From assembly GCA_963726315.1 (NCBI GenBank), contig CAVSBZ010000005.1:1930947-1994946 (forward strand): 64,000 nt of DNA, written 5' to 3'. Below the pieces are notes generated by a model. That model ran no database searches and was not told where the DNA came from. It saw only the letters and a list, made by a program, of their open reading frames with translations. A program made the translations under genes and the position numbers. The stretch is from an uncultured Chloroflexia bacterium (lineage in GTDB: Bacteria > Chloroflexota > Anaerolineae > Anaerolineales > UBA4823). Below are positions 1-64,000 of the stretch, one piece after another (the stretch's first letter is position 1; each line of letters starts with the position of its first letter).

Positions 1-2
1 GA

Positions 3-1437
3 GCGTATGTCAGTACCCACAATAAAGACCATTCCAAGCTGATCGTCATCGATGGCTACACCGCTGGTGATAACGTACTCTATTTATGGGAGAAGAATTC
101 AAACCAGCGACAGCTGATTTATGGTACTCCGCTTGAGGCTCGAAAGCCCGATCAGGTTATTCCTTTCAACGCAATCGATGCAGTCCAATTTGTAGACCAT
201 GATCGAGGTTTATTAGTTTTATCAGCGATTTTTGAGGACACATTCGGGTTTGGATATCTGCGTCTAAAACACCCGGAGGAGGTAAAACCGGTTAAAGTAA
301 AAGGTGTTAAACATCACGGAAACGGTGAGCTCAACCGATGTGAATTCATTCGAAAGAACATATATCTGGTCGAATACAATATTGATGGGTGCTCGTGGCT
401 TTATGAGGGCAGAATTCGACGAAGAGAAGTTAACTATGCGGCTTGGAAATGTCCTGGTCGGTAAGGGTCCGATCTCCAATGGAGTTTTGGAATTGGTCAG
501 TTATGACAAGAAAAGTGATACATATATATTAAGCCACTCAACTGCCACTTCGCCAACCCAGATTTTTGCCATCTTCGGCAAGAACAGGGACCAGATCCTG
601 ATCCATACCAACGAACGTGTGCTCGGTTTGGCAGAGTCTCAGCTTTCTGCGGGAGAAGATGCATCGTTTATTTCGTATGATGGTTTACGGGTATCAGCGC
701 GCTTATATCTGCCGGCAAAAGATTCGAAGTTCCAACCGCCGTTCCCGCTAGTTTATTATATTCACGGTGGTCCACAGGGTCAGGAACGTCCAGATTTCGC
801 CTGGTTCTCCATGCCACTGATCCAATTCTTGACTCTGAACGGGTTCGCTGTTTTCGTTCCCAACGTGCGTGGCAGTATGGGATATGGATTGAGTTATATG
901 AAACAAGTGGATCATGATTGGGGTGGTCTTGACCGGCTGGATCACGTCCATGCGATGAAAGTGTTGAAGAAAGATACCCGGATCGATATTTCCCGATCTG
1001 CAGTGGTTGGGCGTTCTTATGGTGGCTACATGACCCTCACCATGGCGTCCAGGCACCCGGAACTATGGTCTGCTGCAGTGGATATGTTTGGTCCATATGA
1101 TTTGATCACCTTCAGCAACCGCCTGCCTGAGACGTGGAAACCCTATTTTAAGGTCTCCCTCGGTGACCCGGTCGAAGACCGGGAATTTTTAACCGAGCGT
1201 TCTCCCCGCACCTATATTGATCAGATCAAATGCCCGCTGCTCGTTATCCAGGGGAAAAACGATCCCAGGGTGATCGAGCAGGAATCACATGACCTGGTTG
1301 AACACCTGCGTGGAATTGGCAAACAGGTAGAGTACCTGATGTTCGAGAATGAAGGTCATGATGTGCTCAAGCTGGAGAATCGCGTCACCTGTTACAACGC
1401 CATCACAGATTTCTTCAAAAAGCAACTGATGAAATAA
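3..1437 (+). pseudogene. S9 family serine peptidase (prolyl oligopeptidase/acylaminoacyl-peptidase type); 5' end lies outside the window and the frame is broken near 405-412
   Basis: ORF 304..1437 holds the alpha/beta-hydrolase part (GRSYGG nucleophile elbow, C-terminal GHDV). A stop-free frame-3 reading from 3 to 464 (...YNIDGCSWLYEG) joins frame 1 (EFDEEKLTMRLG...) if one base near 411 is removed. Confidence 0.8.
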
Positions 1438-2300
1438 TGGAAACTAAAATAAATACAGAGGCGCAAGCTGGCGATATTGCTCAACTGATCAGCGCACAAA
1501 ATAAACGCTTTATTTTCCGCATCGTGCCTGACGGGAAATTTGAGACGCACCGTGGGTATATCAGCCATAATGAGCTGATCGGAAAACCCTGGGGGACCAC
1601 GGTATTGAGCCACATGGGTAGCCCTTTCGTACTGCTCCAGCCTTCCCTGGCTGATATCCTGGTGGAGACACGCCGGAATACCCAGATCATGTATCCCAAG
1701 GATATCGGTTATATCCTGGTAGCCATGGATATTGGTCCTGGAAAGCATATTTTAGAAGCCGGCACAGGCTCAGGCTCGTTCACTACCGCCCTGGCTTATG
1801 CAGTCGGTCCACAGGGGCAAGTGACAACCTACGAATCCCGCCAGGAGTTCCAAAACCTGGCGCAAAAAAACCTGGACCGGCTTGGTCTTGCTGATCGCGT
1901 CGATTTCAAACTGCGCGATATCGTCGAGGGTTTCGATGAAGTAAATGTCGACGCTGTTTTCCTCGACCTGCCCAACCCTCAGGATTATCTCCCGCAAGCC
2001 AAGAAAGCTTTGAAACCCGGGGGTCACCTGGGATGTATTTTACCGACCACCAACCAGGTTTCCACGCTCCTGGTTGCGCTCAGGCGGTCAAATTTTGCAT
2101 TCATCGAGGTGTGTGAAATCCTGGTACGTTATTACAAGGCGATTGCAGATCGCTTACGACCCACAGATAGGATGATTGCCCATACCGGGTACCTGGTATT
2201 TGCACGGTCTGTTCTTCCAGAAATTGTTAACTTTATTAGCACCGACCGGAAACGTAGAGCAGAAACCGATGAGCGCGATGAAGATATAGCACCTCCCTAA
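1437..2300 (+). CDS. trmI: tRNA (adenine(58)-N(1))-methyltransferase, TrmI/GCD14 family
   Basis: SAM-binding motif ILEAGTGSGSFT and GCD14-like overall layout. TAATG stop/start overlap with the upstream gene. Confidence 0.8.
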   Translation: METKINTEAQAGDIAQLISAQNKRFIFRIVPDGKFETHRGYISHNELIGKPWGTTVLSHMGSPFVLLQPSLADILVETRRNTQIMYPKDIGYILVAMDIGPGKHILEAGTGSGSFTTALAYAVGPQGQVTTYESRQEFQNLAQKNLDRLGLADRVDFKLRDIVEGFDEVNVDAVFLDLPNPQDYLPQAKKALKPGGHLGCILPTTNQVSTLLVALRRSNFAFIEVCEILVRYYKAIADRLRPTDRMIAHTGYLVFARSVLPEIVNFISTDRKRRAETDERDEDIAPP

Positions 2301-2319
2301 TAATATTCCCAGGAAAAAT

Positions 2320-2973
2320 ATGCCTGTGATTACTGATGAATATATCACCCGACAGTTGGCAGAAGTCCTGCAGCCTGGGATTGATTATCCAAATTGGTCC
2401 GAGTCGCTTTCGGGTTCAGCCCGTCCTGCGGCAGTATTAATTCCCCTCTTCCATGCCACAGAAGAAGATAGGCAGAACCATATCTGGCAGGTTTTACTTA
2501 CCCGCCGAACGGAGGTGGTCGCCGAACACCAGGGGCAGGTAGCTTTCCCTGGCGGACGGGCAGATCCTACCGATTTATCGCCTAAATCGACTGCCTTGCG
2601 CGAGGCATACGAAGAGATTGGGATTGATCCAATTCAGGTGAGACTATTGGGACGGATGAACAGGCTGCGCACCATCACGAATTACTGCGTCACTCCGATC
2701 GTCGGAGTGATCCCGTGGCCTTTTCCGATACAGATTGAGGAAATAGAAGTAAGCCGGGTCTTCTCGATCCCGTTGGAATGGCTGGCAAATCCGGATAACC
2801 ACGAGATCCGTCAACGCAACGTCCCGGAAGCCTTTTTAAAAATATTGAAATCATCAACGCATCCAGTAATCTATTTCAAAACCTACCAGGATGAGCTGTT
2901 ATGGGGAGTTAGCGCAGAGATCACGCTTAATTTTGTGAATATTCTATATAATAAAAAACTGGCGGGCGATTGA
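2320..2973 (+). CDS. NUDIX hydrolase (CoA pyrophosphatase-like)
   Basis: Nudix box GGRADPTDLSPKSTALREAYEEIGI fits GX5EX7REUXEEXGU. Confidence 0.8.
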   Translation: MPVITDEYITRQLAEVLQPGIDYPNWSESLSGSARPAAVLIPLFHATEEDRQNHIWQVLLTRRTEVVAEHQGQVAFPGGRADPTDLSPKSTALREAYEEIGIDPIQVRLLGRMNRLRTITNYCVTPIVGVIPWPFPIQIEEIEVSRVFSIPLEWLANPDNHEIRQRNVPEAFLKILKSSTHPVIYFKTYQDELLWGVSAEITLNFVNILYNKKLAGD

Positions 2974-2985
2974 CTCGCCCGCCAG
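2959..2985. terminator. Hairpin between convergent genes, probable bidirectional terminator
   Basis: Perfect 10-bp stem CTGGCGGGCG/CGCCCGCCAG with a 7-nt loop. An A-run on the left gives a U-tract for the minus-strand rplY transcript. The hairpin overlaps the Nudix stop codon. Confidence 0.6.
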
Positions 2986-2988
2986 TGA

Positions 2989-3651
2989 TTACTTGGCTTC
3001 TTCCTCTTCCCCCTCTTCCTCTTTCTTGCCGTGTTCAATGATCTCCGGCTCTTCCGTCAAAACTTCTTCTACTACAGGAGCGACCTCGACCTCTTCAGCT
3101 GCCTGGGCAGTGATGAGTGCGATCATGGTATCCGGATCCTCTAGGATTTTAACCCCATCCGGTACAGTAAGATCACGGACGTAAATCCCATCCCCGATTT
3201 TCGTCAACCCCGAGACGTCTACCACAAATCGTTCCGGTAGATCCTGAGGCAAACATTCAACTTCGACTTCATCGGAACCGGTCATCAGGACTCCGCTGAA
3301 ATCCTTGATTGCGGGAGCGACACCAACAATCTCCATATATACCTGTGAGCGCAGCTTCTCCTTCATGGAAACTGCCAGGAAATCTATGTGCAGCAAGGTT
3401 CCGCTGATTTTATTGCGTTGTTTTTCGCGCACCAACGCTCGATGTGTTTCTCCTTCCACATCGACGGTCACCAATGCCGACGGAGCCAGTCCTGCCAGGA
3501 TCTTGGCGGTATCGCGTAGATCCATCAGGATAGAAATTGGGTCGATATTGTGACCATAAATCACCGCGGGAAGCTGACCTTCCCTACGCATCGCCTTAAC
3601 TTGTTTGCCGATTAGAGTGCGGCGATTCGCCTTCAATATAATTTCTTCCAT
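2989..3651 (-). CDS. rplY: 50S ribosomal protein L25 / general stress protein Ctc
   Basis: N-terminus ANRRTLIGKQVKAMRREGQLPAVIYG is typical of L25/Ctc, with an acidic C-terminal tail. Start moved to MEEIILK (3651), which follows GGAAGGG; the ORF track extends to 3684. Confidence 0.9.
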   Translation of the reverse strand: MEEIILKANRRTLIGKQVKAMRREGQLPAVIYGHNIDPISILMDLRDTAKILAGLAPSALVTVDVEGETHRALVREKQRNKISGTLLHIDFLAVSMKEKLRSQVYMEIVGVAPAIKDFSGVLMTGSDEVEVECLPQDLPERFVVDVSGLTKIGDGIYVRDLTVPDGVKILEDPDTMIALITAQAAEEVEVAPVVEEVLTEEPEIIEHGKKEEEGEEEEAK

Positions 3652-3910
3652 TATTCCCTTCCTCGAGCGCCTCTCACCTCTCAAGGCAATGATGCCTGAG
3701 GATTACCTTCGCTCTATTGGTTGTTCCGGTATCCACCGGTTGGAAATTTGCCTCAGGATATGCGCTGAGCAAGATACATCCTGTGATGCACACCAATCCT
3801 TGGGCAAAAAAATCGCCTCAGCCTCGGAGACGTCTCAAAAGCAGGCTGAATTTTAGCCGCGTTGCACACTTTCGTCAATCCATAAACGCAGAGGAAGTTA
3901 TAATTCCACC

Positions 3911-4513
3911 ATGAATGCCATCAAGGATTTACCTACCAACTATCATCACCGAAAGACACTGGATCTATCTGGTTCTCGGACAGTGCTTTGGTTAAACCTG
4001 GCTACTATCCCGCTCCTTTTCTTTTTTGGTTGGTTATTCAACCGTATTATCGTATACCTGCGGTCATTCAATCCATTTCAAAATGGGTTTTGGGGTCTGG
4101 TGAGCACTTTTTCGGGTTGGGGTTTGATTGTGATCCTGGTTGCTGTCATCTTAATGCTGGTTGTCCACGAGCTCATCCATGGGTTGTTTTTTTGGTTATT
4201 CACCCGCGAACGACCGAAGTTTGCCTTGAGATCGGGATATGCCTTTGCTGCTGCACCTGAGTGGTACTTGCCAAAGGCGCAATATATCATCGTGGGTTTA
4301 TCTCCGTTAATCGTAATTTCTGTTGTGTGTATCGTCATCGCATCATTTGTGCCAGCCTCCATTGCCCCCTACCCATTGTTTATTGCTACATTCAATGCTG
4401 CCGGGGCACTCGGAGATATGCTTGTGGTTGCCTGGGTATCAAAACAAACCGGTTCAGTTCTGGTAAGAGACCTCGGAGATAGATTTTCATCTTTTGTCCC
4501 GGAAATCGAATGA
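3911..4513 (+). CDS. DUF3267-like polytopic membrane protein (putative zincin, HELIH motif)
   Basis: Several hydrophobic helices and the motif VHELIHG, as in the DUF3267 family. Confidence 0.55.
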   Translation: MNAIKDLPTNYHHRKTLDLSGSRTVLWLNLATIPLLFFFGWLFNRIIVYLRSFNPFQNGFWGLVSTFSGWGLIVILVAVILMLVVHELIHGLFFWLFTRERPKFALRSGYAFAAAPEWYLPKAQYIIVGLSPLIVISVVCIVIASFVPASIAPYPLFIATFNAAGALGDMLVVAWVSKQTGSVLVRDLGDRFSSFVPEIE

Positions 4514-5745
4514 CCGAGCAATCCAGCTTTTCCGCGCCTGCTACCTTCCTGGCTAGCCAAAAATTTATGGTGAAACTTGGGGATAAGCAAATTCAGGTCT
4601 GTTCACAGCTTGGTCTGCCAGATTGGGAGCAGGTTTACCCATCAGCACGGCTGTGTGCTGACAATATCAATTTTTCCAATGAAGATCAGGTGCTCTTGTT
4701 TGGCTGCCACCAGGGTGCACTGGCCGCTTACCTGTCACTGGTTATACCAGCAGGTCAGTTAACGATAACAGATCATAACGTCACTGCATTAGAGGTTACG
4801 AAGCAAACTTTGTCTGCCAACAATGCTCCTCCCCTCAATATCCTGACCGATATTGAGTTGCCTCCAGAATACGCTCATCAATTTACCGTAGCCATCATCC
4901 AAATTCCAAAAGGCAGGCTGCTCGCTCGCAGATGGCTCGTACGGGCATTCGATGCCCTGGCTGCGAATGGAAATCTGTATCTCGTGGGCTCCAACCATTG
5001 GGGAATCCAGTCAATCATCAAAGATGCCCAGGCCTTATTTGGAACGGGAAGGATAGTGGCGTATAAAAAAGGCAATCGTTTGGCGCATTTCATAAAAAAA
5101 TCCGGCGATGATCTGAAACCTGACTGGACCCATGCTGCCGGTATAGAAACCCACACCTGGGTCGAGTTTTCAATCACAATTGGTGAACACCCTTATACAA
5201 TTCGCAGCCTGCCAGGAATATTTTCATTTGATCACCTGGATGAGGGAACGGAGATGCTTTTATCCACTGCTCAAATTTCACCACATGCGAAAGTGCTGGA
5301 TGCAGGCTGTGGTTTTGGGATTATCGGCTTGTTTGCTGCAATCAATGGTGCAGAAACGGTGCACTTGGTGGATAATAATCTGCTTGCCATAGCCGCAAGC
5401 CAGGAAACACTATCATTAAATGGGATCAAGAACGCACAAGTGTTTGCAGGAGATTTACTCAACCCCGTTCTCCCTGATCATTATGACCTGATCCTATCCA
5501 ATCCACCTTTCCATACTGGAATGGCAGTAGATTATCAGGTAGCCCATGCGTTGATTGAAGCTTCCTTCCTGGCGCTCAACCCGGGTGGTCAGTTAGTTAT
5601 CGTTGCAAACCGCTTTATTCGGTATGACCGCCTGATAAAGGAAATTTTTGGAAATATAGCCATCCTGTCTGAATCAGGAAAATTTCACCTCCTTTCTGGA
5701 TTAAAATCAAGCCAAGAAATTATGCTGACGAAAATGGGAGGCTGA
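4510..5745 (+). CDS. Class I SAM-dependent methyltransferase, RsmC/RlmG-like (rRNA guanine-N2 type, tandem domains)
   Basis: VLDAGCGFGIIG SAM motif and SNPPFH catalytic motif in the C-terminal half, with a degenerate MTase-like N-terminal half. ATGA overlap with the upstream gene. Confidence 0.7.
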   Translation: MTEQSSFSAPATFLASQKFMVKLGDKQIQVCSQLGLPDWEQVYPSARLCADNINFSNEDQVLLFGCHQGALAAYLSLVIPAGQLTITDHNVTALEVTKQTLSANNAPPLNILTDIELPPEYAHQFTVAIIQIPKGRLLARRWLVRAFDALAANGNLYLVGSNHWGIQSIIKDAQALFGTGRIVAYKKGNRLAHFIKKSGDDLKPDWTHAAGIETHTWVEFSITIGEHPYTIRSLPGIFSFDHLDEGTEMLLSTAQISPHAKVLDAGCGFGIIGLFAAINGAETVHLVDNNLLAIAASQETLSLNGIKNAQVFAGDLLNPVLPDHYDLILSNPPFHTGMAVDYQVAHALIEASFLALNPGGQLVIVANRFIRYDRLIKEIFGNIAILSESGKFHLLSGLKSSQEIMLTKMGG

Positions 5746-6654
5746 ATGGATAGTCCCATAATCCATACTATCGACCTGAATTTTAAGGGGAGAACTGGTA
5801 CCATCGGAGCCTACCTGGTGCCACATTCAGACGGGGCGATCCTGGTGGAAACAGGTCCAGGCTCAACCATCCAAAACCTGATGGCGGGAATGAAACAAGT
5901 CGGATTTGACGTCGGAAATATAAGCGGAGTATTTCTCACCCATATCCATCTCGATCATGCCGGTGCCGCGGGGTGGCTGGCGCAACAAGGCTGCCAGATT
6001 TATGTCCATGAGAATGGTGCTCCTCATCTGGTCAATCCTGAGAAATTGCTCGCCAGCGCCGGCCGGTTGTATGGAGATAAAATGGACAGCCTGTGGGGAG
6101 AATTTTTACCTGTGCACGGAGATAAGATCACCATCCTTCACGATAACGATGTGGTTAATGCTGGCGATTTAGCGATCCGTGCCATGGATGTTCCCGGTCA
6201 TGCCAGCCATCACCTGGCCTACCTCATAGGAGATGCGTGTTTCAGTGGTGATATTGGAGGTATCCGCCTCAATGCTCGTCAATATATCAGTCTACCGATG
6301 CCGCCACCCGATCTAAACCTGGAAACGTGGCGGAAAAGTATAAATCATATCCAGAACTTCAATCCCTCACGCATCGTGCCAACCCATTTCGGGGTTTATG
6401 CAGACGCCAGGTGGCATCTCCAGGCAGTTTTGGATGGGCTGGATGAAGTGGAAACCTGGATGCAAGAAAGATTACTCCTAAATCCCTCGTTGGATGAACT
6501 ACGCCAACAATTCATTGAGTTTGAGCAGCTGCGCGCCCAGAAATATCATGTAGAGAAGACCGCGGTAGAGAACCAGCAGATCGCCAATCCATCCTCCATG
6601 TCAGCAGATGGCATCTTCAGATACTGGAACAAATTTAGAAAACCGGAAATTTAA
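5746..6654 (+). CDS. MBL-fold metallo-hydrolase
   Basis: THIHLDHAG metal-binding motif (HxHxDH). Confidence 0.8.
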   Translation: MDSPIIHTIDLNFKGRTGTIGAYLVPHSDGAILVETGPGSTIQNLMAGMKQVGFDVGNISGVFLTHIHLDHAGAAGWLAQQGCQIYVHENGAPHLVNPEKLLASAGRLYGDKMDSLWGEFLPVHGDKITILHDNDVVNAGDLAIRAMDVPGHASHHLAYLIGDACFSGDIGGIRLNARQYISLPMPPPDLNLETWRKSINHIQNFNPSRIVPTHFGVYADARWHLQAVLDGLDEVETWMQERLLLNPSLDELRQQFIEFEQLRAQKYHVEKTAVENQQIANPSSMSADGIFRYWNKFRKPEI

Positions 6655-6801
6655 AATGTTGCATGTCTCAGCGCTTTTGTTCGATCAAATGACTATACGA
6701 TATCGATATGTCCAATATTGGATTTCTTTCTCACCACTATCGATGAACTTTTATATAGCTACATAAATCAAAATATACAAAGATAAAAATCGGAGATTCT
6801 C

Positions 6802-8475
6802 ATGGATTTTGATCATTACTTTACCAACGAAGAGTTATCCCAGCTTCTAACAGAATGGGGTGCAAAATATCCTGATCTCATTAATGTGAGCTCGATTGGG
6901 ACCAGTCATGAAGGGAGTCCCATCCAGCTGTTAACCATAACCAACCAGTCAACCGGGTCGGATTTGGAAAAACCAGCCATATGGATTGACGCTAATCTGC
7001 ACGCCACTGAGATCACCGGCACCACCTCAGCCTTGTACATTGCATATAACTTATTAGTCGGATACGGTACTGATAAGCACATCACCCGCCAGCTGGATCA
7101 GAGCGTGTATTATATCGTCCCACGTGCGAACCCTGATGGGGCTCACTGGGCGATGGCACCCAATCCACGTTACGTGCGTTCGGGAGTGAGGCCTTATCCG
7201 TGGGAGGAAAAAGACGAAGGCTTGTTCACCCAGGATATCAATGGTGATGGAAAAATACTCCAGATGAGATTGCAAGATCCCAACGGCGATTGGAAGGTCA
7301 GCTCATTAGACCCACGCTTGATGGAGAAGCGTTCAATAGATGAGAGCGGTGGTAATTATTACCGCTTATTTACTGAGGGGCTACTCGAGGATTATGATGG
7401 CTATGTCATCAAATTAGCCAGACCGTTGGAAGGTCTTGATTTCAACCGTAATTTCCCCTTCGAATGGCGTACTGAAGGAGAACAGAACGGTGCTGGTCCA
7501 TACCCCACCTCTGAACCAGAGACGCGTGCCCTGACAGATTTTGTGATTACACACCCGAATATCAATGTAGCGATTACATTTCATACTTTCAGCCGGGTCA
7601 TTCTACGCCCGTATAGCACAAAATCAGATGATGACATGAACACCGAAGACCTGTGGGTGTTCAAGAAGATCGGTGAGATCGGCACAAAAATCAGTGGCTA
7701 TCGCAGTGTGTCCACTTTCCATGATTTCAAATACCACCCCAAGGAAGTAACTACCGGTGCATTTGATGATTGGATGTATGACCACCATGGAGTTTTTACC
7801 TATACCATTGAGCTGTGGGACCTGCCCACTGAGGCTGGGATTAAAGACCGCAAGTGGATTGAATGGTGGCGGGAGCATCCGCATGAAGAGGACCTGCAGA
7901 TATTGAAATGGATTGATGAACATGGCGCACCGGATGCCTATATGCCATGGCAGCCTTTCGATCACCCCCAGCTGGGAAAAATCGAGCTGGGTGGTTGGAA
8001 TAATATGTACACCTGGCGTAATCCACCGTTAGGTTTTGTTGAGGCGGAAGTAAAAAAGCATTACCCCTTCATCCTCACCCTGGGAGATCTGCTGCCTCAT
8101 CTCTCGATTCACACGATTAAGGTTGAGAAGATAAATCCAGATAAGTATCACCTCAATTTAGTCGTCGAAAATAGCGGCTTTTTACCCAGCTATACCAGCC
8201 AGCAAAGTAAAACGCGAAAATCGTGCCGCCCGGTCAGAGTGGTGATCGAGCTACCTGACGGCGCATTGCTGACCAGTGGAAAACACCGCCAGGAGTTAGG
8301 TCATCTCGAAGGTCGAAGTAATAAATTGGAAGTAGCGGCACTATCTGCAGATAGCCCCACAGACAACCGTGCTCGTCTCGAGTGGGTGATTGAGGCACAG
8401 CCAGGGACAACAGTCAAGCTTAAGGTGCTGAGTGAACGTGCTGGGTCAATCTCTCAAGAAGTTGTCCTGCAATAA
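6802..8475 (+). CDS. M14 family zinc carboxypeptidase
   Basis: DANLHATEITG (HxxE zinc ligands) and a layout typical of bacterial M14 carboxypeptidases. Confidence 0.8.
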   Translation: MDFDHYFTNEELSQLLTEWGAKYPDLINVSSIGTSHEGSPIQLLTITNQSTGSDLEKPAIWIDANLHATEITGTTSALYIAYNLLVGYGTDKHITRQLDQSVYYIVPRANPDGAHWAMAPNPRYVRSGVRPYPWEEKDEGLFTQDINGDGKILQMRLQDPNGDWKVSSLDPRLMEKRSIDESGGNYYRLFTEGLLEDYDGYVIKLARPLEGLDFNRNFPFEWRTEGEQNGAGPYPTSEPETRALTDFVITHPNINVAITFHTFSRVILRPYSTKSDDDMNTEDLWVFKKIGEIGTKISGYRSVSTFHDFKYHPKEVTTGAFDDWMYDHHGVFTYTIELWDLPTEAGIKDRKWIEWWREHPHEEDLQILKWIDEHGAPDAYMPWQPFDHPQLGKIELGGWNNMYTWRNPPLGFVEAEVKKHYPFILTLGDLLPHLSIHTIKVEKINPDKYHLNLVVENSGFLPSYTSQQSKTRKSCRPVRVVIELPDGALLTSGKHRQELGHLEGRSNKLEVAALSADSPTDNRARLEWVIEAQPGTTVKLKVLSERAGSISQEVVLQ

Positions 8476-8501
8476 TCTATTAGAATGATTAAGAGGCTGC
8501 G

Positions 8502-9686
8502 ATGAATCCGATTCTGGTTCAGGAAAAAGTACAACAAGCCATTGGAATATTACAGGAAATGGGCGTTGATATGTGGCTGACCTTCGTCAGAGAGACTACC
8601 GCTGGCGGCGATCCTGTCCTTCCACTTATTTATGGTCTCGACCTGACCTGGCAAAGCGCGCTGATATTATGCAGGACAGGAGAGCGTATCGCGATCGTCG
8701 GCAGACTTGAAGCTGAAGCAGCACGCCGTACTGGTGCCTATGACGAGATTATCCATTACGATCAGTCTATTCAGTCGGCGTTATTGGGTGTTCTTGAACG
8801 ATTGAACCCAAACCAAATTGCCATCAACTATTCGATCGACGATGTTCATGCCGATGGGCTGTCTTTTGGGATGTACCAACTTTTATCCAGGTATCTGGGC
8901 ACACCATATCGATCCAGGTTGGTCAGCGCAGAAAAACTGCACAGCGCCCTGCGTGGGCGTAAAACAGTGCAGGAAATCGAGCTTATTCGGGCTGCCATTC
9001 GTACGACTGCGAGAATTTTTCAGAATACGTTTGATTTTATCCAAGTTGGTATGACTGAGGTCGAAATCAGCGATTTCATGCATGCCCAGCTGGACGAATC
9101 CCGTGTGCAACCCGCCTGGGAGCTGATCAATTGTCCAACCGTAAACAACGGACCTGATTCACCCATCGGGCATGTGGGACCGACCGAGTTAAAAATCTCG
9201 CCTGGGCAAATCGTTCATTTTGACTTCGGTGTGCTGCAGGACGATTATTGCTCCGACATCCAGCGCGTGGTCTATTTCCGCCGTCGGGGTGAGCAAGCAC
9301 CTCCTGCTGAGGTCCAACGTGCATTTAACACTGTCAGGAAAGCCATCCAGGCTGCATTTCAGTCCATGAAACCTGGAGTCACCGGTAAATCAATTGACCA
9401 AATTGCCCGCCAGACGATCCTGGAAGCAGGCTATCCGGAATTCCCTTATGCTACCGGTCACCAGGTGGGACGCGTGGTGCATGATGGTGCTGCCATCCTT
9501 GGACCGGAGTGGGAGCGATATGGAGACACGCCGAATTACCCGCTCGAAGCTGGTCAGGTTTATACTCTTGAGCCTGGGTTGGCAGTGCCGGGGTTTGGCT
9601 ACCTTGGGCTAGAAGAAGATGTACTGGTCACTGATAATGGAGCCGAATACCTGGGTGACCCCCAGACCGAATTAATCGTCAAGTAA
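8502..9686 (+). CDS. M24 family Xaa-Pro aminopeptidase/dipeptidase
   Basis: Creatinase-like N-terminal domain plus a pita-bread C-terminal domain (HFDFG...CSDIQR, GHQVGR, LEPG, GLEEDVLVT). Confidence 0.8.
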   Translation: MNPILVQEKVQQAIGILQEMGVDMWLTFVRETTAGGDPVLPLIYGLDLTWQSALILCRTGERIAIVGRLEAEAARRTGAYDEIIHYDQSIQSALLGVLERLNPNQIAINYSIDDVHADGLSFGMYQLLSRYLGTPYRSRLVSAEKLHSALRGRKTVQEIELIRAAIRTTARIFQNTFDFIQVGMTEVEISDFMHAQLDESRVQPAWELINCPTVNNGPDSPIGHVGPTELKISPGQIVHFDFGVLQDDYCSDIQRVVYFRRRGEQAPPAEVQRAFNTVRKAIQAAFQSMKPGVTGKSIDQIARQTILEAGYPEFPYATGHQVGRVVHDGAAILGPEWERYGDTPNYPLEAGQVYTLEPGLAVPGFGYLGLEEDVLVTDNGAEYLGDPQTELIVK

Positions 9687-9709
9687 TTTGTAATGTAAGA
9701 TAGAGGGAT

Positions 9710-11026
9710 TTATAACAAGGATATCGCCTGGGCAATCGTCTGGCGGAAGTCAGGACGGTTGAATTTCCTCCATAATTCGGGGAACGAGGCGGTTAATCGG
9801 AAGCGTTCTGCATTTAAGTACGCCAGGTAACTGACAATAGGCTCAGGGTTTAAACGCTCAGCGATGGGTATTTGGGTTTGTTGTTTATCCCATTTCTTCA
9901 AAAACCCACTGACCAGCTGGCAGGCTACATCCGCATCGTGCAGCTCACCCAGGCGGTCTTGCAGTTGTTTTATTTCGTTGACAGCCTGGTTGGCACCTTC
10001 CCCGAGAATTTCCTTGAAGTATTCAAGTGTATAGCGGAATTTCTTGAATTCGATCCGAAGTGCATGCAGCTGAGTGACCGAGGCGGTGGGCAGGATGCCT
10101 TCGTAGGACCTGACCGCCGCGTAGCGGCTATAGACCAATACCGGGACAGCATCTCGCAGGAGTGAATTCCTGCCTCCATTTTGGACCAGCGGAGAATCAA
10201 GCTGTTCAGGTGCCTGTAAGAAGAGGTTGAAATTATATTTAAAGTTAGCGTATTGCTCACTTTGCAGGTGCTTTAGCATTTTGGTGCGCTGCTGGTCAAT
10301 TGTGCTCTGCCAGTCAGCTAACAAGGGTCCCAAACCAGGGCGTTGGTCCTCTTTGAGTTTCCTCTGATAGTTCACAGCATTTTCCACGATAACATCCAAA
10401 TCCCGTACCTGACCTAACACCCTCCCAACTGTACGTAGTCCCTTGAGATGACGCTTCATAATTTTTGGCTCAAAAGCGGAGCTAAAAATATCAAAAGCAG
10501 ATCGCATGCGGCGTGTGGCTACACGCATATCATGCAATTCTTCAATGTTCTCGCCCACCAAAGTGCCTGGCTCATGGCACAGCATCTCCGCAAAGTAAAA
10601 CGACCATACTTTTTTACCGGCTGACGCAAGGCTATCATCAGGATTGATCCCAATGGTCTCCCTGGGCTGTGGTACCGGTATTTCCAAGCTGGCGGGTACT
10701 TCTATCGATGGTTCAGCTACTACAGTATCCAATCCCAAACTATCCTGTGGTAAATTTTGTTCTGCTACCACTGGTTCTGTTGGTGATGCAGTCTCCGAAT
10801 CCGGGCTAAAGATGCCCATTCCTTTAGCAATAAACTGACGCTTCCAGAAGCGTGCTCTACCACGTGAAATCCCGGCATCCATCGCTGCCTTGATCGTTGG
10901 TTTTCCATCTGCATAACCTAATATCAGACTAGCGCGGTGGCTTAGCAATTCTGTACCGCTTTGAGACAATTCAACCAATTGCAGTCGTTCCTCGTCAGAG
11001 AGCATGATAATGGGCATGGAATTCAT
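9710..11026 (-). CDS. CHAD domain protein with N-terminal helix-turn-helix region
   Basis: HDMRVATRRMRSAFDIF and LHALRIEFKKFRYTLEYF are typical CHAD helices. The N-terminal ~75 aa look HTH-like. Confidence 0.75.
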   Translation of the reverse strand: MNSMPIIMLSDEERLQLVELSQSGTELLSHRASLILGYADGKPTIKAAMDAGISRGRARFWKRQFIAKGMGIFSPDSETASPTEPVVAEQNLPQDSLGLDTVVAEPSIEVPASLEIPVPQPRETIGINPDDSLASAGKKVWSFYFAEMLCHEPGTLVGENIEELHDMRVATRRMRSAFDIFSSAFEPKIMKRHLKGLRTVGRVLGQVRDLDVIVENAVNYQRKLKEDQRPGLGPLLADWQSTIDQQRTKMLKHLQSEQYANFKYNFNLFLQAPEQLDSPLVQNGGRNSLLRDAVPVLVYSRYAAVRSYEGILPTASVTQLHALRIEFKKFRYTLEYFKEILGEGANQAVNEIKQLQDRLGELHDADVACQLVSGFLKKWDKQQTQIPIAERLNPEPIVSYLAYLNAERFRLTASFPELWRKFNRPDFRQTIAQAISLL

Positions 11027-11045
11027 TATAGCATACCGGTATACA

Positions 11046-12029
11046 TTAATTATTTAGCTTCTTTGCATCTACCAAACCTTTGATCTCGGCATCGACCATG
11101 ATCTGCACTAATTGTTCAAAAGATGTCTCCGTTTGCCAATTTAACATTTGTTTTGCTTTTCTGGGGTTCCCTACCAACAGCTCGACGTCTGCAGGGCGCA
11201 TATAGAGTGGGTCTTGAAGTACATAATCTCTATAATCCAATCCCAGGCAGCCAAATGCAAGCTCGGTGAATTCCCTGACTGAGTGGGTATGCCCTGTAGC
11301 CAGCACGAAATCTTCCGGCTGTTCCTGTTGCAGGATCATCCACATTCCCCGTACATAATCTGGCGCAAATCCCCAGTCTCGCTGTGCATCAAGATTCCCA
11401 AGACGTAATTCCTTCTCCAGATTTTGCTTGATCCTCGCAGCTCCCCGGGCAATTTTCCGGGTGACAAACTCGTGGCCACGTCGTGGGCTTTCATGGTTAA
11501 AACAGATCCCAGAGCAAGCAAACAGGTTGTAACTTTCACGGTAATTCACCGTAATCCAATGACCATACAGCTTGGCAACTCCATATGGGCTGCGTGGATA
11601 GAAAGGTGTGCTCTCAGATTGAGGCGATTCATGTACCTTGCCAAACATCTCGCTCGTGCTTGCCTGATAGAATTTGATATCCGGGTCGACCAGTCTGATT
11701 GCATCCAATACCCGGGTAACCCCCAATGCGGTCACTTCTCCGGTGAACACCGGTTGGACCCACGAAGTTTGGACGAATGACTGCGCTGCCAGGTTATACA
11801 CTTCGCTGGGGCGGTGTGTTTTGATGATGTCAATTACGGAAATCTGGTCCATCAGGTCGCCGGAGACGATGGTGATCTTATCTTGAATGTGCTCAATACG
11901 CTCGAAATTAATCGTGCTTGAGCGTCGCACCATACCGATGACCTCATAACCCTGTTCGAGTAAAAATTCTGCCAGGTACGACCCATCCTGACCAGTTATC
12001 CCCGTAATTAACGCCCGTTTATTCGCCAT
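11046..12029 (-). CDS. gmd: GDP-mannose 4,6-dehydratase
   Basis: ALITGITGQDGSYLAEFLLEQGYEV Rossmann start and SDR-extended family motifs (YGVAKLY). Confidence 0.9.
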   Translation of the reverse strand: MANKRALITGITGQDGSYLAEFLLEQGYEVIGMVRRSSTINFERIEHIQDKITIVSGDLMDQISVIDIIKTHRPSEVYNLAAQSFVQTSWVQPVFTGEVTALGVTRVLDAIRLVDPDIKFYQASTSEMFGKVHESPQSESTPFYPRSPYGVAKLYGHWITVNYRESYNLFACSGICFNHESPRRGHEFVTRKIARGAARIKQNLEKELRLGNLDAQRDWGFAPDYVRGMWMILQQEQPEDFVLATGHTHSVREFTELAFGCLGLDYRDYVLQDPLYMRPADVELLVGNPRKAKQMLNWQTETSFEQLVQIMVDAEIKGLVDAKKLNN

Positions 12030-17363: not shown

Positions 17364-17371
17364 ATATTCAA

Positions 17372-51070: not shown

Positions 51071-51116
51071 CATAGGCTCCAACCATAGGATAATCCATTA
51101 TTCATACCGGTAGAGC

Positions 51117-52822: not shown

Positions 52823-54077
52823 ATGACTTCCAATCATAGCCAGCGAGCTCGAGTCAATGATAATGGTAATCCGATAATCCCAGCTGATGTTGCCAGGCAG
52901 TACGGGATTCAACCAGGGGGAGAGCTTTTCCTGGACGAAAAAGATGATGGTATTTTCTTGCGCCGAGCCGATTTCGCATTTGGCAAAAGTTTACATCGAG
53001 CCAACCAGTAAATGCAATCTCTCCTGCCGGACTTGTATCAGAAATTCTTGGGATGAGCCGATGGGTCAAATGACTGATGCAACCTTCGACCGGGTAATAA
53101 GCGGTATCCAAGAGTTAAACTCAAGCCCCTTGATCTTCTTTGGAGGTTTTGGCGAACCGCTCTCACATCCTAAGATTGTTGATATGGTGGCACGAGCAAA
53201 GAAATTAGTCCCAAGGTAGAGTTGATCACAAATGGTATGTTGCTAGACCGAAGAACGCTCGCGTTCTTTACACCAGGCTGGATTGAGTTTTTTATGGGTG
53301 TCGGTTGATGGAGCTTCGCCTGAAAGTTATGCGGATATTCGCATCGGAGCAGCACTCCCAGATATTTTCCGGAATATTGCACATTATCGCTATTTATATC
53401 TGGATATGACTGGCAGGGATCCTGGGATTGGTTTGGCATTCGTTGCCATGAAACGCAACATTGCTGATTTGCCTGAACTACTAAAAATGAGTACCAGACT
53501 TGGAGTGTCACGCTATTTGGTGACCAACGTCATCCCTTATACACGCGAGATGTGTGAAGAAAGACTTTACGGTCGTGCTATGGATACGCTCGCAGGTGTT
53601 CCTTCGTCATGGGTTCCGCGGTTGGATTTTCCCCCGATGGATACCAACCGATACACTCGTGATCCGTTAATTCGGATAATGAGTGCCAATCCGCAATATT
53701 ATCAAATGGATAGTAGTTTAGCAGAACTTAGAGGACGTTGTCCGTTCATCCGTCAAGGTTCGACAGCGATTGCATGGGATGGAAGTGTAAGCCCTTGTTT
53801 ACCATTGATGCACCAATACGAGAGTTATTTAATGGATATATCCAGAAGTGTAAAGCGATATGTAATCGGTAATATCGCAGAACAAGGCATTAAGGATTTA
53901 TGGGAGTCAAGAGAATATGTGGATTTTCGCAAGCGGGTGGATGAATTCGATTTTTCCCCCTGTACCGTTTGTGCAAGCTGCCAGATGGCTGAATCGAACG
54001 AGGAAGACTGTTATGGGAATATATTTCCAACTTGCGGGGGATGCTTGTGGGCACAAGGTTTCATCCGCTGTCCCTAA
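52823..54077 (+). pseudogene. Radical SAM/SPASM-domain protein with N-terminal AbrB/SpoVT-like domain; three frame breaks
   Basis: ORF 52823..53011 has an AbrB-like swapped-hairpin sequence (RVNDNGNPIIPADVARQYGIQPGGELFL). ORF 52887..53219 has the CNLSCRTC radical SAM cluster motif. 53210..53273 is in another frame (PKVELITNGMLL). ORF 53283..54077 has a Cys-rich SPASM-like C-terminus (CPF...CxPL...CTVCASC...CGGC). Confidence 0.75.
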
Positions 54078-54172: not shown

Positions 54173-54598
54173 ATGGAAACATATCAAACTCAAGCTCAAT
54201 TATTCAAGGTCTTGATGCACCCCACCCGCTTGGCCATCCTGGATGAGTTACGCCATGGTGAGCAGTGTGTCTGCCACATGGAGGCTAAATTCGGCTTACG
54301 CCAGGCGTATATTTCACAACATCTCATGGTGCTGCGCGATGCTGGATTAGTTACTGATCGACGTGATGGCTGGAATATTTATTATCAAGTGGATAAACCG
54401 GAGATCTTCCAGGTCATTGATGCAATGAAAAACATGACCGACACATCGAATAGCATTCAAACTGGCAGTACTCAATCCAATATTAGTTCATCAGAAAAAC
54501 AGCGTCCTTGTCCCTGCCCCAAGTGCAATGCCGGCTCAGAGGCAAATCACAATGAATCACAGGACTTAGCGCTAAATGAGGTTGTGGCTACAGTTTGA
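54173..54598 (+). CDS. arsR: ArsR/SmtB family transcriptional regulator with Cys-rich C-terminal tail
   Basis: LFKVLMHPTRLAILDEL...CVCH...ISQHLMVLRDAGLV winged-helix core, with CPCPKC in the tail. Confidence 0.85.
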   Translation: METYQTQAQLFKVLMHPTRLAILDELRHGEQCVCHMEAKFGLRQAYISQHLMVLRDAGLVTDRRDGWNIYYQVDKPEIFQVIDAMKNMTDTSNSIQTGSTQSNISSSEKQRPCPCPKCNAGSEANHNESQDLALNEVVATV

Positions 54599-54654
54599 AG
54601 GAAACAGTAAAACACATTGATATATCTAGCCTATTGAAAAACAGTGAGGAACCC

Positions 54655-55103
54655 ATGCCTAATTTTCTTGAAACTACAATCGATAAATTTACTTTCAAAG
54701 TTGCTGATGATCGCTTCTACACACCAGCAGGTATATGGGCGCTAGCAGAAGGCAACCGAATCCGGATCGGCCTTTCTGATTTCCAACAGCAACGCAGCGG
54801 CGACGTGGCGTTTGCAGAGATCAAACCAGTCGGCACGCAGCTTGCTTTTGATGATGAAGTGGCGGTGATCGAGACGATCAAAGTCAATATCAGCCTGGGT
54901 TCTCCTGTCGCTGGGAGTGTTGTTGAAGTCAATCCAGCTATGACTGATGCTCCCGAAGTAATAAACCAGGATCCTTATGGGCTGGTTGGATGGCTGTGAT
55001 CGAGGCAGAAGATTGGAAAGCCGATCGACCACGCCTGATGGATCCCCAGGCTTACTTTGCGCACATGAAATCTCTGGCACAAGAGGAGTTGAATAAAGGA
55101 TGA
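54655..55103 (+). pseudogene. Glycine-cleavage H-protein-like lipoyl carrier, frame break at GGG 54979-54981
   Basis: VIETIKVNISLGSPVAGSVVEVN aligns by eye with the GcvH lipoyl-lysine motif (VESVKAASD...). DPYG then continues as (A)GWMAVIEAEDW... in the next frame. GAGGA RBS before ATG 54655. Confidence 0.7.
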
Positions 55104-55534: not shown

Positions 55535-56272
55535 TCTTCCCAAGAAAAAAGTTGGGATTGTGGCTTGTTCTGGCGAAGAACTGGCTGAAGGACAGTAACA
55601 CGCCTGGCGGCCTTGAAGGTACTAGAGCAGCTTCGCCCGGCTGAAACGGTCACCATCTGCCTGCCGCTTTTTCTGGCCGGCGGTGAGGGCGACCGAGCAT
55701 TTGCCCGCTTTTATCCGACGATTGCCGTAGATGGCTGCAATTTACGCTGCGCTGCACAAGGAACCGAGATGTATTCCGGAAAACCAGCTGCAAGCCTGGT
55801 AGTAAGTGATCTGGTGCAGCAAAAAGGTTTGGAGCAACCCAAAGGGTTGCGCCGGTTGAACAATGCTGGAAAGCAGGCTGTGGATTTAATGGCAGAACAA
55901 ATTGCGGACCAAGTTGACCAGATCCTTGGCTTGCAGTGGGATCGGCGCAAAGGTGAATTTACATTACCTGTCCAGAGAGATGATGCATCCGCTCCATCAA
56001 TTCAAGAAACAGTCCAGGCTACCTGTTCCTGCGGATCAGGAATCCCAATCCAAAAGGTGATGATCAATGGGCAGAGCGTAACCCTGATCGCCCTGCCGGT
56101 GATGCTCCAGCAGTTCAAAGAGGCTGGTAAAGCTCCTGGAGCAGAGACTGTCACAGAGCTACTGGATCTACTCAAGATCTATAATCCGATCCCAGCCGGA
56201 GAAGAACCAATCTACCGTGAGATGCTGCAAAAAGAATATTCGGCTTACTTCGAGAAGGAGCCTTCCCAATGA
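55527..56272 (+). pseudogene. DGC-domain protein 2 with ~100-aa C-terminal extension; frame break at GG 55590-55591
   Basis: MVDLPKKKVGIVACSGEELAEG continues as TVTRLAALKVLEQL...AVDGCNLRC in the adjacent frame. The C-terminal extension carries CSCGSG. GGAGGAG RBS before ATG 55527. Confidence 0.7.
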
Positions 56273-56719
56273 GTCGCACAGCCACCTACAATACGACTGT
56301 AGCCTGGAAAGGCGAGCATTGGGGCCATATCGTGATGGGCAATGGTCCAGAAATGGATTTCTCAGCCCCGCCCGATGCTCAGGGTCATCCCGGTGTGCTG
56401 ACGCCCGAAGATGCGTTTGTAGCTGCAGCCAATACCTGCATCATGATGATGTTTATCTGGGCGTCTGAGCGATTCAAGCTGAACCTGATTTCTTATGATT
56501 GCCGGGCTGAGGGGACCAAGCTGATCGAGCTGGACCGCACAGAGATTTTCACCCATTTACGTTTCTACCCGGTAATCCACATTGCAGCAGGTGGTGAAGA
56601 AGAAAAAGTCAGTCGAAGGGCGTGCTCGTCGAGCCTTACAGTCGGCACAAAAATACAGCCTTGTAGCAAACTCGGTGAAATCCGAGATTATCATCGAACC
56701 GCAAATTAAGGTTAGCTAA
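56269..56719 (+). pseudogene. OsmC-like protein, frame break at A5 56603-56607
   Basis: OsmC-type N-terminal half (AFVAAANTCIMMMF). After GGEEEK the plausible C-terminus RRALQSAQKYSLVANSVKSEIIIEPQIKVS is in the next frame. ATGA overlap upstream and TAATG overlap downstream. Confidence 0.6.
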
Positions 56720-56922
56720 TGAAACCAGTTCTCAACGAAGAAAAATGCCCGGCCATCGGGCAATATTGCCCAGCTATTCCGGCATGCACGGAAAACGCGA
56801 TGTCGTATGTTATTGATAAAAGTATCCGTAAGGGCGGTCGAATTGTTTTCAATTATGAAAAATGTAATGAGTGTGGTATTTGTGTCACCAAATGCTGCGG
56901 ATCTGCTATTGAACTCAATTAA
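56719..56922 (+). CDS. Small 4Fe-4S ferredoxin-like protein
   Basis: CNECGICVTKCC (CxxCxxCxxxC) plus an N-terminal Cys triplet, CPAIGQYCPAIPAC. Confidence 0.65.
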   Translation: MKPVLNEEKCPAIGQYCPAIPACTENAMSYVIDKSIRKGGRIVFNYEKCNECGICVTKCCGSAIELN

Positions 56923-61815: not shown

Positions 61816-62407
61816 ATGAGCCAGAAATCCGATTTTATGTTAAGCAAGCTATCGGTACGTTTCGGTGCACAATCGCTTACGGAGTTATGGATGTATCTCG
61901 AATCCATCAGACTCACTAAAATACTGCCATGCCTGGCAGAACCAGGCAAGATCATCGTGATCGGAGATCCATCACGCAAATTGGATGAGGTGCTGCCTTA
62001 TCTGGCAACACTACCTAATGTGATCTCCTATAACCCGGATAGCTTGCACACTTACCCTGCGACGGCAGCCTGGTTTTATCTCGCTGTATTCAGAAAAAGC
62101 ATATATCACCAAGGTCAAGGATACTGAAGAAGGGTTGGAATTGTTCAAAGCGCTAGTGGATGCGATCAATGCGACCTGGGATCATCGGGAAGAGCTGGTG
62201 GCAATGACTGCTCGAAAACACGCTCCACGTCCCCTGGATATATGGACGTTACTACCCCAAACCAATTGTAAACAATGTGGTGAGGCTACCTGCATGGCAT
62301 TTGCTTGTAAATTATTGCTTCAAGAGCGAGAACTACCCGAATGCACTCCACTACAAGCGGATGCGGCATTTGCCGAACGTCGAGCAACCTTGGAAGCGAT
62401 GCTTTAG
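61816..62407 (+). pseudogene. Fe-S-binding protein with CxxCGxxxCxxFA (RnfB/CdhD N-terminal type) domain; frame break ~62024-62050
   Basis: ORF 61816..62127 and ORF 62135..62407 join as ...NVISYNPD / LTLRRQPGFISLYSEKAYITKVKDTEEGLELFKALV...TNCKQCGEATCMAFAC. Confidence 0.65.
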
Positions 62408-62502: not shown

Positions 62503-62895
62503 ATGTTGAACTATTTACCTGATCCAGCAACCCCTCCAGTTGACTTAAATCAATTGGCTAATTGGCTCAAGGTTTTAGCCGAGCCAAACCGATTGCTGAT
62601 CTTCCACTTTCTGATGGAAGGCGTCCAGTGCAACTGCGAGCTCGGGGACGGCCTGCAAATAGCTCCCAACCTGATCTCCCACCACCTGAGGGTTTTACGC
62701 GAGGCAGGTCTTGTTGATGTCGAACGCGATTCCCTGGATGGCCGCTGGATGTACTATTCAATAAACCGTAAGGCACTCGAAGCAATTAATTTCGCTTGGG
62801 GCACTTTTTTTGACCCACAACGAATTAAACCACGCCGGCTCACCTGTGGTCCACAGGGTGAGTTTATCCGCCTGGATATTAAGCAAGAGGGTTAG
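62503..62895 (+). CDS. arsR: ArsR/SmtB family transcriptional regulator (second copy)
   Basis: LKVLAEPNRLLIFHFL...CNCE...ISHHLRVLREAGLV. Confidence 0.85.
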   Translation: MLNYLPDPATPPVDLNQLANWLKVLAEPNRLLIFHFLMEGVQCNCELGDGLQIAPNLISHHLRVLREAGLVDVERDSLDGRWMYYSINRKALEAINFAWGTFFDPQRIKPRRLTCGPQGEFIRLDIKQEG

Positions 62896-62933
62896 TTTTT
62901 TTATCGAAATACTTCAATGGAGACTGAATTACT

Positions 62934-63293
62934 ATGACCGAATTTATACCTATCACTGATATATTGCCTTCCAACGCTAAAACAGCAGAAGTGGAAATTT
63001 TTGATCCACCCATGTGCTGCCCGACCGGAATGTGCGGTCCAACTATCGATCAGACTCTTTTGGATCTCAACGAGATGGTCCTGGCACTTCAAGCCCAGGG
63101 AGTCGTTGTGGCACGTTATCAAATGACCAGCCATCCGAATGCTTTCCTTAATAATCCTGAAGTCATGAAAATTGTTATGGAAAAGCAGATGGAGGCTCTA
63201 CCGATTACGGTGGTACATGGAAAAGTGATCAAAACGCAGAATTACCCTTCCCTCGATGAAGTAAACACATATCTCAATGGAGCCCATTCATGA
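62934..63293 (+). CDS. arsD: Arsenical resistance metallochaperone/repressor ArsD
   Basis: EIFDPPMCCPTGMCGP carries the ArsD Cys-Cys-x4-Cys As(III)-binding signature. Confidence 0.9.
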   Translation: MTEFIPITDILPSNAKTAEVEIFDPPMCCPTGMCGPTIDQTLLDLNEMVLALQAQGVVVARYQMTSHPNAFLNNPEVMKIVMEKQMEALPITVVHGKVIKTQNYPSLDEVNTYLNGAHS

Positions 63294-64000
63294 CCCAATA
63301 CATCTTCTTTTCCGGCAAAGGCGGAGTTGGCAAGACCAGCATGGCATGCACGCATGCGGTCCGCTACGCTGATGAAGGAAAACGCACCCTCATCGTCACC
63401 ACTGACCCGGCATCCAATCTCTCCGACACGTTTGAGCAGCCCATCGGACACCAAATCACCCCCATTACCGATGTACCCAATTTATGGGCGATGGAGATCG
63501 ACCCTGATAAAGCCACCCAGGAATATATCGATCGTGCAATGGCACCTATCCGTGCTGCTTTTCCGCCCCAGATCGTCCAGGTGATGGAAGAGCAGATGAG
63601 CGGTCCCTGCACTGCAGAAGTAGCTGCTTTTGACCGCTTTACTGATTTTCTGGAAGTTTCAACCAGTTCTGATAAAGTTTTCGATGTCGTGATCTTTGAT
63701 ACCGCTCCTACTGGACATACGATTCGCCTATTGGAGCTGCCCGCCGAGTGGAGCCAATCGATCAATGCGGCGAGCTCGGGCAATGGGCAGACCTGTATTG
63801 GTCCAGCAGCAGCCATCCAGGAAGCCAAGAATAAGTACGAGCGTGCCTTAGCTGCCATGCGGGATAGACGCCAGACCACATTCTTTTTCGTTCTGCATCC
63901 GGAAGCTATTTCAATCAAGGAAACCCGGCGTGCAATCACCGAGCTGAGTAAATTGGGCATCCAAAATTATCGCCTGATCATCAACGGCATTATTTCACTC
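63290..64000 (+). CDS. arsA: Arsenite-transporting ATPase ArsA, 3'-truncated by the window edge
   Basis: Hand translation from ATG 63290 (ATGA overlap with arsD): MTQYIFFSGKGGVGKTS... with DTAPTGHT. Absent from the ORF track because no stop lies in the window. The antisense ORF 63364..63960 is spurious. Confidence 0.9.
   Translation, partial: MTQYIFFSGKGGVGKTSMACTHAVRYADEGKRTLIVTTDPASNLSDTFEQPIGHQITPITDVPNLWAMEIDPDKATQEYIDRAMAPIRAAFPPQIVQVMEEQMSGPCTAEVAAFDRFTDFLEVSTSSDKVFDVVIFDTAPTGHTIRLLELPAEWSQSINAASSGNGQTCIGPAAAIQEAKNKYERALAAMRDRRQTTFFFVLHPEAISIKETRRAITELSKLGIQNYRLIINGIISL

Follow-up and report, generated by a model that had tools for sequence, protein, structure and literature searches.

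The closest described counterparts of the locus examined here are the residual indel errors and artefactually split genes of metagenome-assembled genomes (MAGs) such as those of the Microflora Danica (MFD) long-read catalogue, which was built from Nanopore reads only, assembled with Flye (--meta --nano-hq) and polished with one round of Medaka (PMC12313526). The authors of that catalogue tie Nanopore-associated errors to MAGs of lower coverage (PMC12313526), and earlier Nanopore indels are reportedly traced to homopolymer regions in another paper (PMC9262707). Two further systems invite comparison, namely the consensus artefacts at strain-polymorphic sites of collapsed long-read assemblies and the bacterial pseudogenes created by frameshifts. 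Our subject is a 64,000-nt stretch of contig CAVSBZ010000005.1 from an uncultured Chloroflexia bacterium (hereafter the window, meaning the whole of this stretch), in which nine accessory genes, including one for a giant M23 peptidase and several in a redox cluster linked to ars genes, are split by frame breaks. Like the Nanopore-only MAGs, the window carries single-base indels that are private to one assembly, its genes are fragmented here and intact in short-read-style contigs, and sibling contigs carry the same lesion type. It differs from them in that its errors lie outside homopolymers, where the published ones concentrate, and are strongly patchy within 64 kb. With collapsed assemblies it shares alleles set side by side at 52967 and 38100, whereas its association with third codon positions is not significant and its deletions are not assessable in this way. 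With bacterial frameshift pseudogenes it shares open reading frames (ORFs) that are disrupted relative to orthologs, multiple lesions in some genes and an enrichment of non-essential genes, but it lacks nonsense mutations, larger deletions, insertion sequence (IS) insertions and any surplus of non-synonymous changes, its indel-to-substitution ratio exceeds those of measured natural spectra, and its inserted bases are not duplications of their neighbours. From the evidence presented below, we conclude that the frame breaks are quite probably consensus errors in a long-read (most probably Nanopore-only) MAG, rather than mutations of the organism.

Sixteen clustered frame breaks in nine genes

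All breaks were placed against intact orthologs or homologs of each gene. When species-representative genomes were searched with the largest fragment of the M23 gene, five syntenic loci were identified in MAGs of uncultured Chloroflexota (Chloroflexia/Anaerolineae), four of them from the MFD project, and the closest of the five, L001 (MFD05942.bin.1.129), is 85% identical at the nucleotide level across 29.6-40.1 kb of the window. The comparators for the 52.5-56.7 kb stretch were three JGI contigs (L007-L009, 86-93% nucleotide identity) together with L087 (91%), while for the housekeeping control L093 and L094 were both aligned with the window over 2.6-24.1 kb. The window has a G+C content of 42-52% (2-kb windows), a single tRNA-His and densely packed genes. 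Relative to intact orthologs, all nine genes are split by a total of 16 coding breaks, every one of which is a 1-nt indel (Table 1), and at least five more private indels (four of 1 nt and one of 2 nt) are found in the adjacent non-coding DNA. The stretch from 50.2 to 56.6 kb holds 16 events. The initial annotation, made from the sequence without database searches, had counted at least 15 breaks and had named the right genes, but its positions at 53208-53210, 53270-53275 and 50930-50945 were off by 10-50 nt, and the gene it called HNH-like, which is indeed broken, has four breaks rather than three according to nucleotide alignment with L088 and L090.

Table 1. Genes with frame breaks, non-coding indels and the control block, in window coordinates.
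Feature	Position	Strand	Lesion (+1, insertion; -1, deletion) and basis
S9 prolyl-oligopeptidase-family gene	1..1437	+	5' end cut by the window edge; +1 at 407-411; Pfam Peptidase_S9
Housekeeping block	1437..26368		25 contiguous intact genes, no frame break; ORF map, Pfam; control region
DegV gene	26365..27229	-	+1 at 26779-26783 (~26781); alignment to the intact L004 ortholog
M23 giant: ~1,320-aa secreted M23 peptidase with PPC and Big_7 domains	36048..40001	-	Four pieces; +1 at 38100, 39235 and 39378
249-aa conserved hypothetical gene ("HNH-like")	50323..51075	+	-1 at 50361, +1 at 50555, -1 at 50880, -1 at 50907
Radical SAM/SPASM maturase-like gene	52887..54077	+	+1 at 52967, -1 at 53197, +1 at 53246; Pfam, NCBIfam
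GcvH-like gene	54595..55100	+	Truncated by -1 at 54979-54981; alignment
Second DGC-domain gene (DGC2)	55540..56272	+	-1 at 55591-55592; Pfam DGC match begins at profile position 14
OsmC-like gene	56269..56730	+	+1 at 56611, just past an A5 run of conserved length
FeS gene: 171-aa protein with a putative Fe-S cluster domain (PF04060)	61891..62407	+	+1 at 62043
Non-coding private indels	52571, 52619, 52723, 54092; 51103		-1 at 52571, -1 at 52619, +1 at 52723, -1 at 54092; 2-nt deletion at 51103; relatives agree against the window

The evidence for the individual breaks is as follows. In the S9 gene, tblastn with a 640-aa homolog (P0242) gave one match in frame 3 (nt 6-410; aa 159-297) and another in frame 1 (nt 406-1431; aa 296-636); the insertion is likely a change of GG to GGG, with an original reading of GAG GCA GAA. 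A PDB search with the N-terminal S9 fragment returned only noise, and the join was placed instead by tblastn of representative homologs. The two DegV fragments cover positions 2-152 and 151-279 of the Pfam DegV profile, and the insertion between them is located 4-12 nt downstream (in gene orientation) of a T5/A5 run and outside of it; the run itself is not the break site, because translation stays in the proper frame across it and for one Arg codon beyond. L001-L004 each have the M23 gene as one uninterrupted ORF (1321-1327 aa), and the three insertions of the window are private relative to all four. When stitched across three frames, the 249-aa protein matches the intact homolog P0121 with 90% identity at 100% coverage, and 120 intact homologs were listed. 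In L007 and L009, the radical SAM/SPASM gene is unbroken (420 aa from stop to stop), and its indels, like the DGC2 deletion, are private to the window relative to L007, L008, L009 and L087. The GcvH-like ORF has 174 aa in L007, L009 and L087 versus 139 aa in the window, where the Pfam GCV_H match ends at profile position 95 of 122; a frame-corrected reading of PYGxGWMAVIE would restore the family motif. A combined model for the 54981 site, in which a -4 deletion accompanies a +3 insertion within the GGATGGATGG repeat, was rejected as less parsimonious and in view of the PYGxGW motif restored by the 1-nt model. For the OsmC-like gene, the Pfam match ends at profile position 75 of 100 and the insertion is private relative to L009, L007 and L087. 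Lastly, tblastn of the intact FeS protein of L087, the one comparator on which this site rests, gave 50/51 identities in frame 1 (98%) and 120/121 in frame 2 (99%).

The distribution of these breaks is far from even. Housekeeping coding sequence, 22,950 nt in all, contains none of the 16 coding breaks (P = 1.5e-4), the breaks are confined to 9 distinct genes (P = 0.002), and the median nearest-neighbour distance is 230 nt (P = 7e-4). Both the strong clustering and the improbability of a uniform error rate, as originally proposed, are therefore borne out by these values. The ~25 kb of housekeeping genes said to be free of breaks are likewise intact. A hidden frameshift considered at the overlapping ORFs 12333-12734 and 12598-13863 was rejected, as the DUF58 protein has 421 aa here and in all homologs, and the alignment with L093 and L094 revealed no mid-gene indel private to the window, but only intergenic ones or ones within ~15 nt of a stop codon. 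Parts of the accessory DNA are clean as well, since 29.9-36.0 kb showed no break relative to L001 and L002, and 56.7-60.9 kb contained no window-private frame-breaking indel relative to L009 and L087. Therefore, the pattern is one of short bursts, rather than of accessory versus core genes, and its non-random clustering points to non-uniform error instead of biology.

Privacy of the indels, assembly type and sequence context

Every indel of the window is absent from its relatives (L001-L004 for the M23 gene; L007-L009 and L087 for 52.5-56.7 kb; L088 and L090 for the 249-aa gene), and there are ten sites in 52.5-56.7 kb at which L007-L009 and L087 all agree against the window. This is the comparison with orthologs in sister genomes that had been suggested as a check, and it found the relatives in a single frame at these sites and the breaks private. 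Coding and non-coding DNA are both affected, at a similar density, with four private 1-nt indels in ~0.6 kb of non-coding DNA (estimated length) and six in ~3.6 kb of coding DNA across 52.5-56.7 kb. In a four-way alignment of 52.7-57.55 kb, the ratio of private 1-nt indels to private substitutions was 7/84 for the window, 4/121 for L087, 0/74 for L009 and 1/244 for L007. The window count becomes 8/84 with the deletion at 54092, which MAFFT did not place as fully private, and at this count the window differs from the two JGI metagenome contigs with P = 3.6e-5 (Fisher's test).

Lesions of the same type were encountered in other long-read contigs. The genes are intact and without any coding indel in the relatives' contigs with short-read-style names, i.e. 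the JGI Ga03152xx contigs and those with MEGAHIT "k141_" names (L003, L091 and L092). The Nanopore assembly ERZ25039554 (= MFD05942) is the source of L087, L093 and L094. In L087, private insertions occur at the equivalents of 53121 (splitting its own radical SAM gene), 56250, 56764, 57206 and 57718. In L094, a private 1-nt insertion splits a housekeeping M14 peptidase gene into 349 + 224 aa (15276-16950, equivalent to window 6802-8475), and in L093 another splits a two-domain methyltransferase into 213 + 200 aa (18126-19362, equivalent to window 4510-5745), although this latter break is located in a diverged linker and could be genuine. The M23 gene of L005 is split too. As for the window, its DUF58 protein has a 100%-identical counterpart on an NCBI/ENA contig, and the 90%-identity cluster of this protein includes proteins from ERZ25039554 contigs; one contig of that set, contig_12090, is a contig of MFD05942.bin.1.129. 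We strongly infer that the window belongs to a long-read MAG, which is most probably Nanopore-only.

Two observations on L087 touch the same genes. Its 398-aa "DGC-OsmC fusion" (L087 7729-8925, equivalent to window 55540-56730) is made by the L087-private +1 at the equivalent of 56250; the window, L007 and L009 have two overlapping genes here, and the fusion is probably an artefact too. In addition, the private indels of two independent assemblies, the window (52967-53246) and L087 (equivalent of 53121), fall in the same 280 nt of the radical SAM gene, which could reflect chance or a locally error-prone template.

Residual errors of a Nanopore consensus would be expected to concentrate in homopolymers. 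The window contains 256 runs of ≥5 nt, including 73 of ≥6 nt; no indel falls in any of them, and just one abuts a run of 4. The original suggestion of indel-prone sequencing is supported, but homopolymers do not account for the breaks, as most events are single-base indels outside of runs. This includes the T5 (26788-26792), C5 (39385-39389) and A5 (56603-56607) runs in which breaks had been placed, as run length or frame is conserved there and the actual breaks lie 4-12 nt away; the C5 run, for example, has the same length as in L001 and L002. Of the 10 coding insertions, at least 7 (39235, 38100, 50555, 52967, 53246, 56611 and 62043) introduce a base that differs from each of its neighbours. 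Insertions and deletions are balanced, but the deleted bases are not recoverable and the deletions at 54981, 55592 and 50907 could have been in runs of 3-4 nt. Inspection by eye for a common motif around the indels, such as a methylation site, found none; two of the M23 insertions create GATC, while the others do not. The AG of the window at 52967 corresponds to A in L009 and to G in L007/L008, and its TC at 38100 corresponds to T in L001, L002 and L004 and to C in L003. In both cases, the alleles stand side by side at a synonymous site, which is what a collapsed mixed pile-up could produce and may serve as a lead to the origin of these insertions.

Selection on the frame-corrected genes and the alternatives to error

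Two alternatives are comparably unlikely, the first of which is a genuine and very recent pseudogenisation, which would have struck the M23 gene, the 249-aa gene and the ars-adjacent radical SAM-GcvH-DGC-OsmC cluster too recently for substitutions to have built up. Consistent with this, the breaks are found only in accessory or niche genes, several genes have multiple lesions, as expected once a gene is dead, and the 249-aa gene is carried on a 1.2-kb segment that is absent from L087. The condition of the genes argues otherwise. Once the indels are removed, the eight genes with an aligned ortholog are full length, lack in-frame stops and share 80-99% amino-acid identity with that ortholog. Among the window-private substitutions in the ars-patch genes, 49 are synonymous and 23 non-synonymous, with a distribution of 17:6:49 over the codon positions, and the intact relatives have synonymous to non-synonymous counts of 46:14, 129:73 and 70:33 in the same genes. 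Similarly, the non-synonymous share in the M23 gene is 38% on the window branch and 37% on the L001 branch. Neutral evolution would be expected to yield ~77% non-synonymous substitutions versus the 32-38% of the window lineage, and for the four broken ars-patch genes, in which 18 of 56 substitutions are non-synonymous, neutrality is rejected with P = 7e-11. Purifying selection on the window lineage is not relaxed. The FeS protein has 99% amino-acid identity with that of L087 at 86-90% nucleotide identity and is therefore under intense constraint, which likewise argues against a gene that has died.

The GcvH-like gene merits a separate remark regarding its substitutions. Those private to the window pile up at 54750-55000, with 20 synonymous and 6 non-synonymous changes in ~500 nt, and identity in this stretch is 0.88 relative to all three relatives, versus 0.93-0.97 in the flanks. 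Judged from this pattern, the stretch may be a segment recombined from a more distant relative.

The spectrum of lesions speaks against inactivation as well. Any neutral phase in the ars patch is bounded at <15 substitutions (95% confidence), alongside six coding indels. The indel-to-substitution ratio implied for this patch, >0.4, is above all seven of the bacterial mutation-accumulation estimates, which range from 0.10 to 0.36 (PMC4978911 Table 1). At these natural ratios, 1.8-6.6 nonsense mutations would be expected beside 15 indels, and yet the broken genes, with 16 frameshifts between them, have no nonsense mutation (P = 0.16-0.001), no larger deletion and no IS insertion. Moreover, insertions outside of runs are atypical of replication slippage, and private lesions of this kind recur in the long-read sibling contigs, where they include one in a housekeeping gene. 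The notion that the ars-linked cluster is largely pseudogenised through genuine decay, which the initial annotation had raised, is thus not supported, given the unrelaxed selection, the absence of nonsense mutations, the privacy of the indels and the intact genes on short-read-style contigs of relatives.

The second of these alternatives, which we likewise consider improbable, is a mixture, in which the dense patches (50.2-56.6 kb and the M23 gene) are errors, whereas at least one of the isolated breaks (S9, DegV or FeS) is real or the allele of a minority strain. Single breaks do resemble a real loss-of-function allele that is recently fixed or segregating, and the S9 change, if GG to GGG, would be a natural slippage type. 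However, the isolated breaks share both lesion type and privacy with the patches and nothing sets these sites apart, while correction yields conserved, full-length DegV and FeS proteins. Less probable than either of these is a real, very recent and local burst of indel-biased mutation in one Anaerolineae population, for which a transient mutator state or error-prone repair of breaks could, for instance, be responsible. If true, its targets would have been a surface M23 protease, a small gene on an insertion and the radical SAM-GcvH-DGC-OsmC redox cluster by the ars operon, all of them inactivated, and real indels would in any case amount to an unusual, indel-dominated burst of gene inactivation. 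Programmed ribosomal frameshifting or phase variation by slipped-strand mispairing can be set aside as extremely improbable, for nothing speaks in their favour beyond the presence of frame changes in a surface protease gene, while the orthologs are single-frame at all sites, simple repeats and runs of ≥5 nt are free of indels, individual genes have three or four shifts in both directions, and non-coding DNA is affected too.

Several points nevertheless count against consensus error. The clean 25-kb block conflicts with a simple genome-wide low coverage, and a local cause must be assumed. Likewise, indels outside of homopolymers are not what polished Nanopore data usually show, and the explanation has to assume that reads at these places were very few or in conflict. 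The test of selection loses power when an event is very recent, and the M23 gene (4 kb) allows up to ~28 neutral substitutions by a rough normal approximation, such that a short neutral phase of this gene is compatible with the test. In addition, 8 of 9 insertions adjoin a third codon position versus 6 expected, a hint of collapsed single-nucleotide polymorphisms that is not significant.

Origin of the patchiness, neighbouring genes and implications

If the breaks are consensus errors, random single-base indels would have outlived assembly and polishing in a few short stretches (~38.1-39.4 kb and 50.2-56.6 kb, with isolated sites at 0.4, 26.8 and 62.0 kb), whereas the remaining contig would have been polished clean. 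The patchiness most likely stems from locally thin coverage or strain mixture, an option that the initial annotation had also listed, in that strain-variable accessory segments, combined with the several close relatives of a sample that yielded related assemblies, would leave a consensus derived from few or conflicting reads. The affected stretches are variable in this way, as 50193-51384 of the window (1.2 kb, holding the 249-aa gene) is an insertion relative to L087 and the cadherin-like neighbour of the M23 gene is missing from L001 and L002, and at least five related populations are present in sample MFD05942, which is not established as the sample of the window's own genome. Cross-mapping from the L087 population alone was considered as the cause of the patch and rejected, because the stretch closest to L087 (57.75-60.75 kb, mostly 96-98%, range 88-98%) is without a private frameshift.

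The 249-aa gene has further features of its own. Direct repeats of ~20-55 nt (e.g. GTATGNAGCAAGGAANGGCGACC ... CCNGTCCAAAGGGGGAAA) flank it at 49877-49984, 50161-50215 and 51112-51207, and in L090 it adjoins an apparent tRNA 3' end; around 49.7 kb, however, Rfam models gave no credible match that would indicate a broken tRNA. Judging by these flanks, the segment may be a small integrated cassette. The protein belongs to a widespread family of ~245-260 aa with two CxxC motifs (CIFCGK... and CKECNNGWMS). It has no significant Pfam or NCBIfam family, and the label HNH-like is not established, because its sole match is a faint one to HNH_5 (E = 0.46). Next to the M23 gene is a gene for an 835-aa cadherin-like/Big_9-repeat protein (40345-42852) that has no counterpart at this place in L001/L002, where the alignment skips 40143-42902, and thus represents a surface gene that varies between strains or species. 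The clean stretch at 29.9-36.0 kb encodes a 623-aa protein (34127-35998) with a neurotransmitter-gated ion-channel ligand-binding domain (PF02931) and a long N-terminal extension. It is a prokaryotic homolog of Cys-loop receptors and is conserved and intact in L001 and L002. The cluster at 52887-64000 encodes a radical SAM/SPASM maturase, ArsR, a GcvH-like protein, two DGC-domain proteins, an OsmC-like protein, a small thioredoxin-like protein, CMD and a cysteine desulfurase, followed by thioredoxin, DsbD, the FeS-domain protein, ArsR, ArsD and ArsA. Its gene order is kept in L087 and partly in L009 and L007. The best NCBIfam match of the radical SAM/SPASM protein is a maturase of a tungsten-cofactor oxidoreductase, below the cut-off.

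Residual errors in long-read MAGs can thus be strongly patchy and independent of homopolymers, and would be missed by quality measures taken genome-wide (e.g. coding density) or by error filters based upon homopolymers. Pseudogene counts and inferences of gene loss drawn from such MAGs call for read-level checks. The breaks described here are best handled as an artefact of assembly quality, with the consensus in need of polishing against reads and the annotation in need of correction. In the present case, automatic annotation of the contig would report approximately nine accessory genes as fragments or pseudogenes and could thereby suggest decay of the ars-linked redox cluster, whereas all nine genes are almost certainly intact in the organism.

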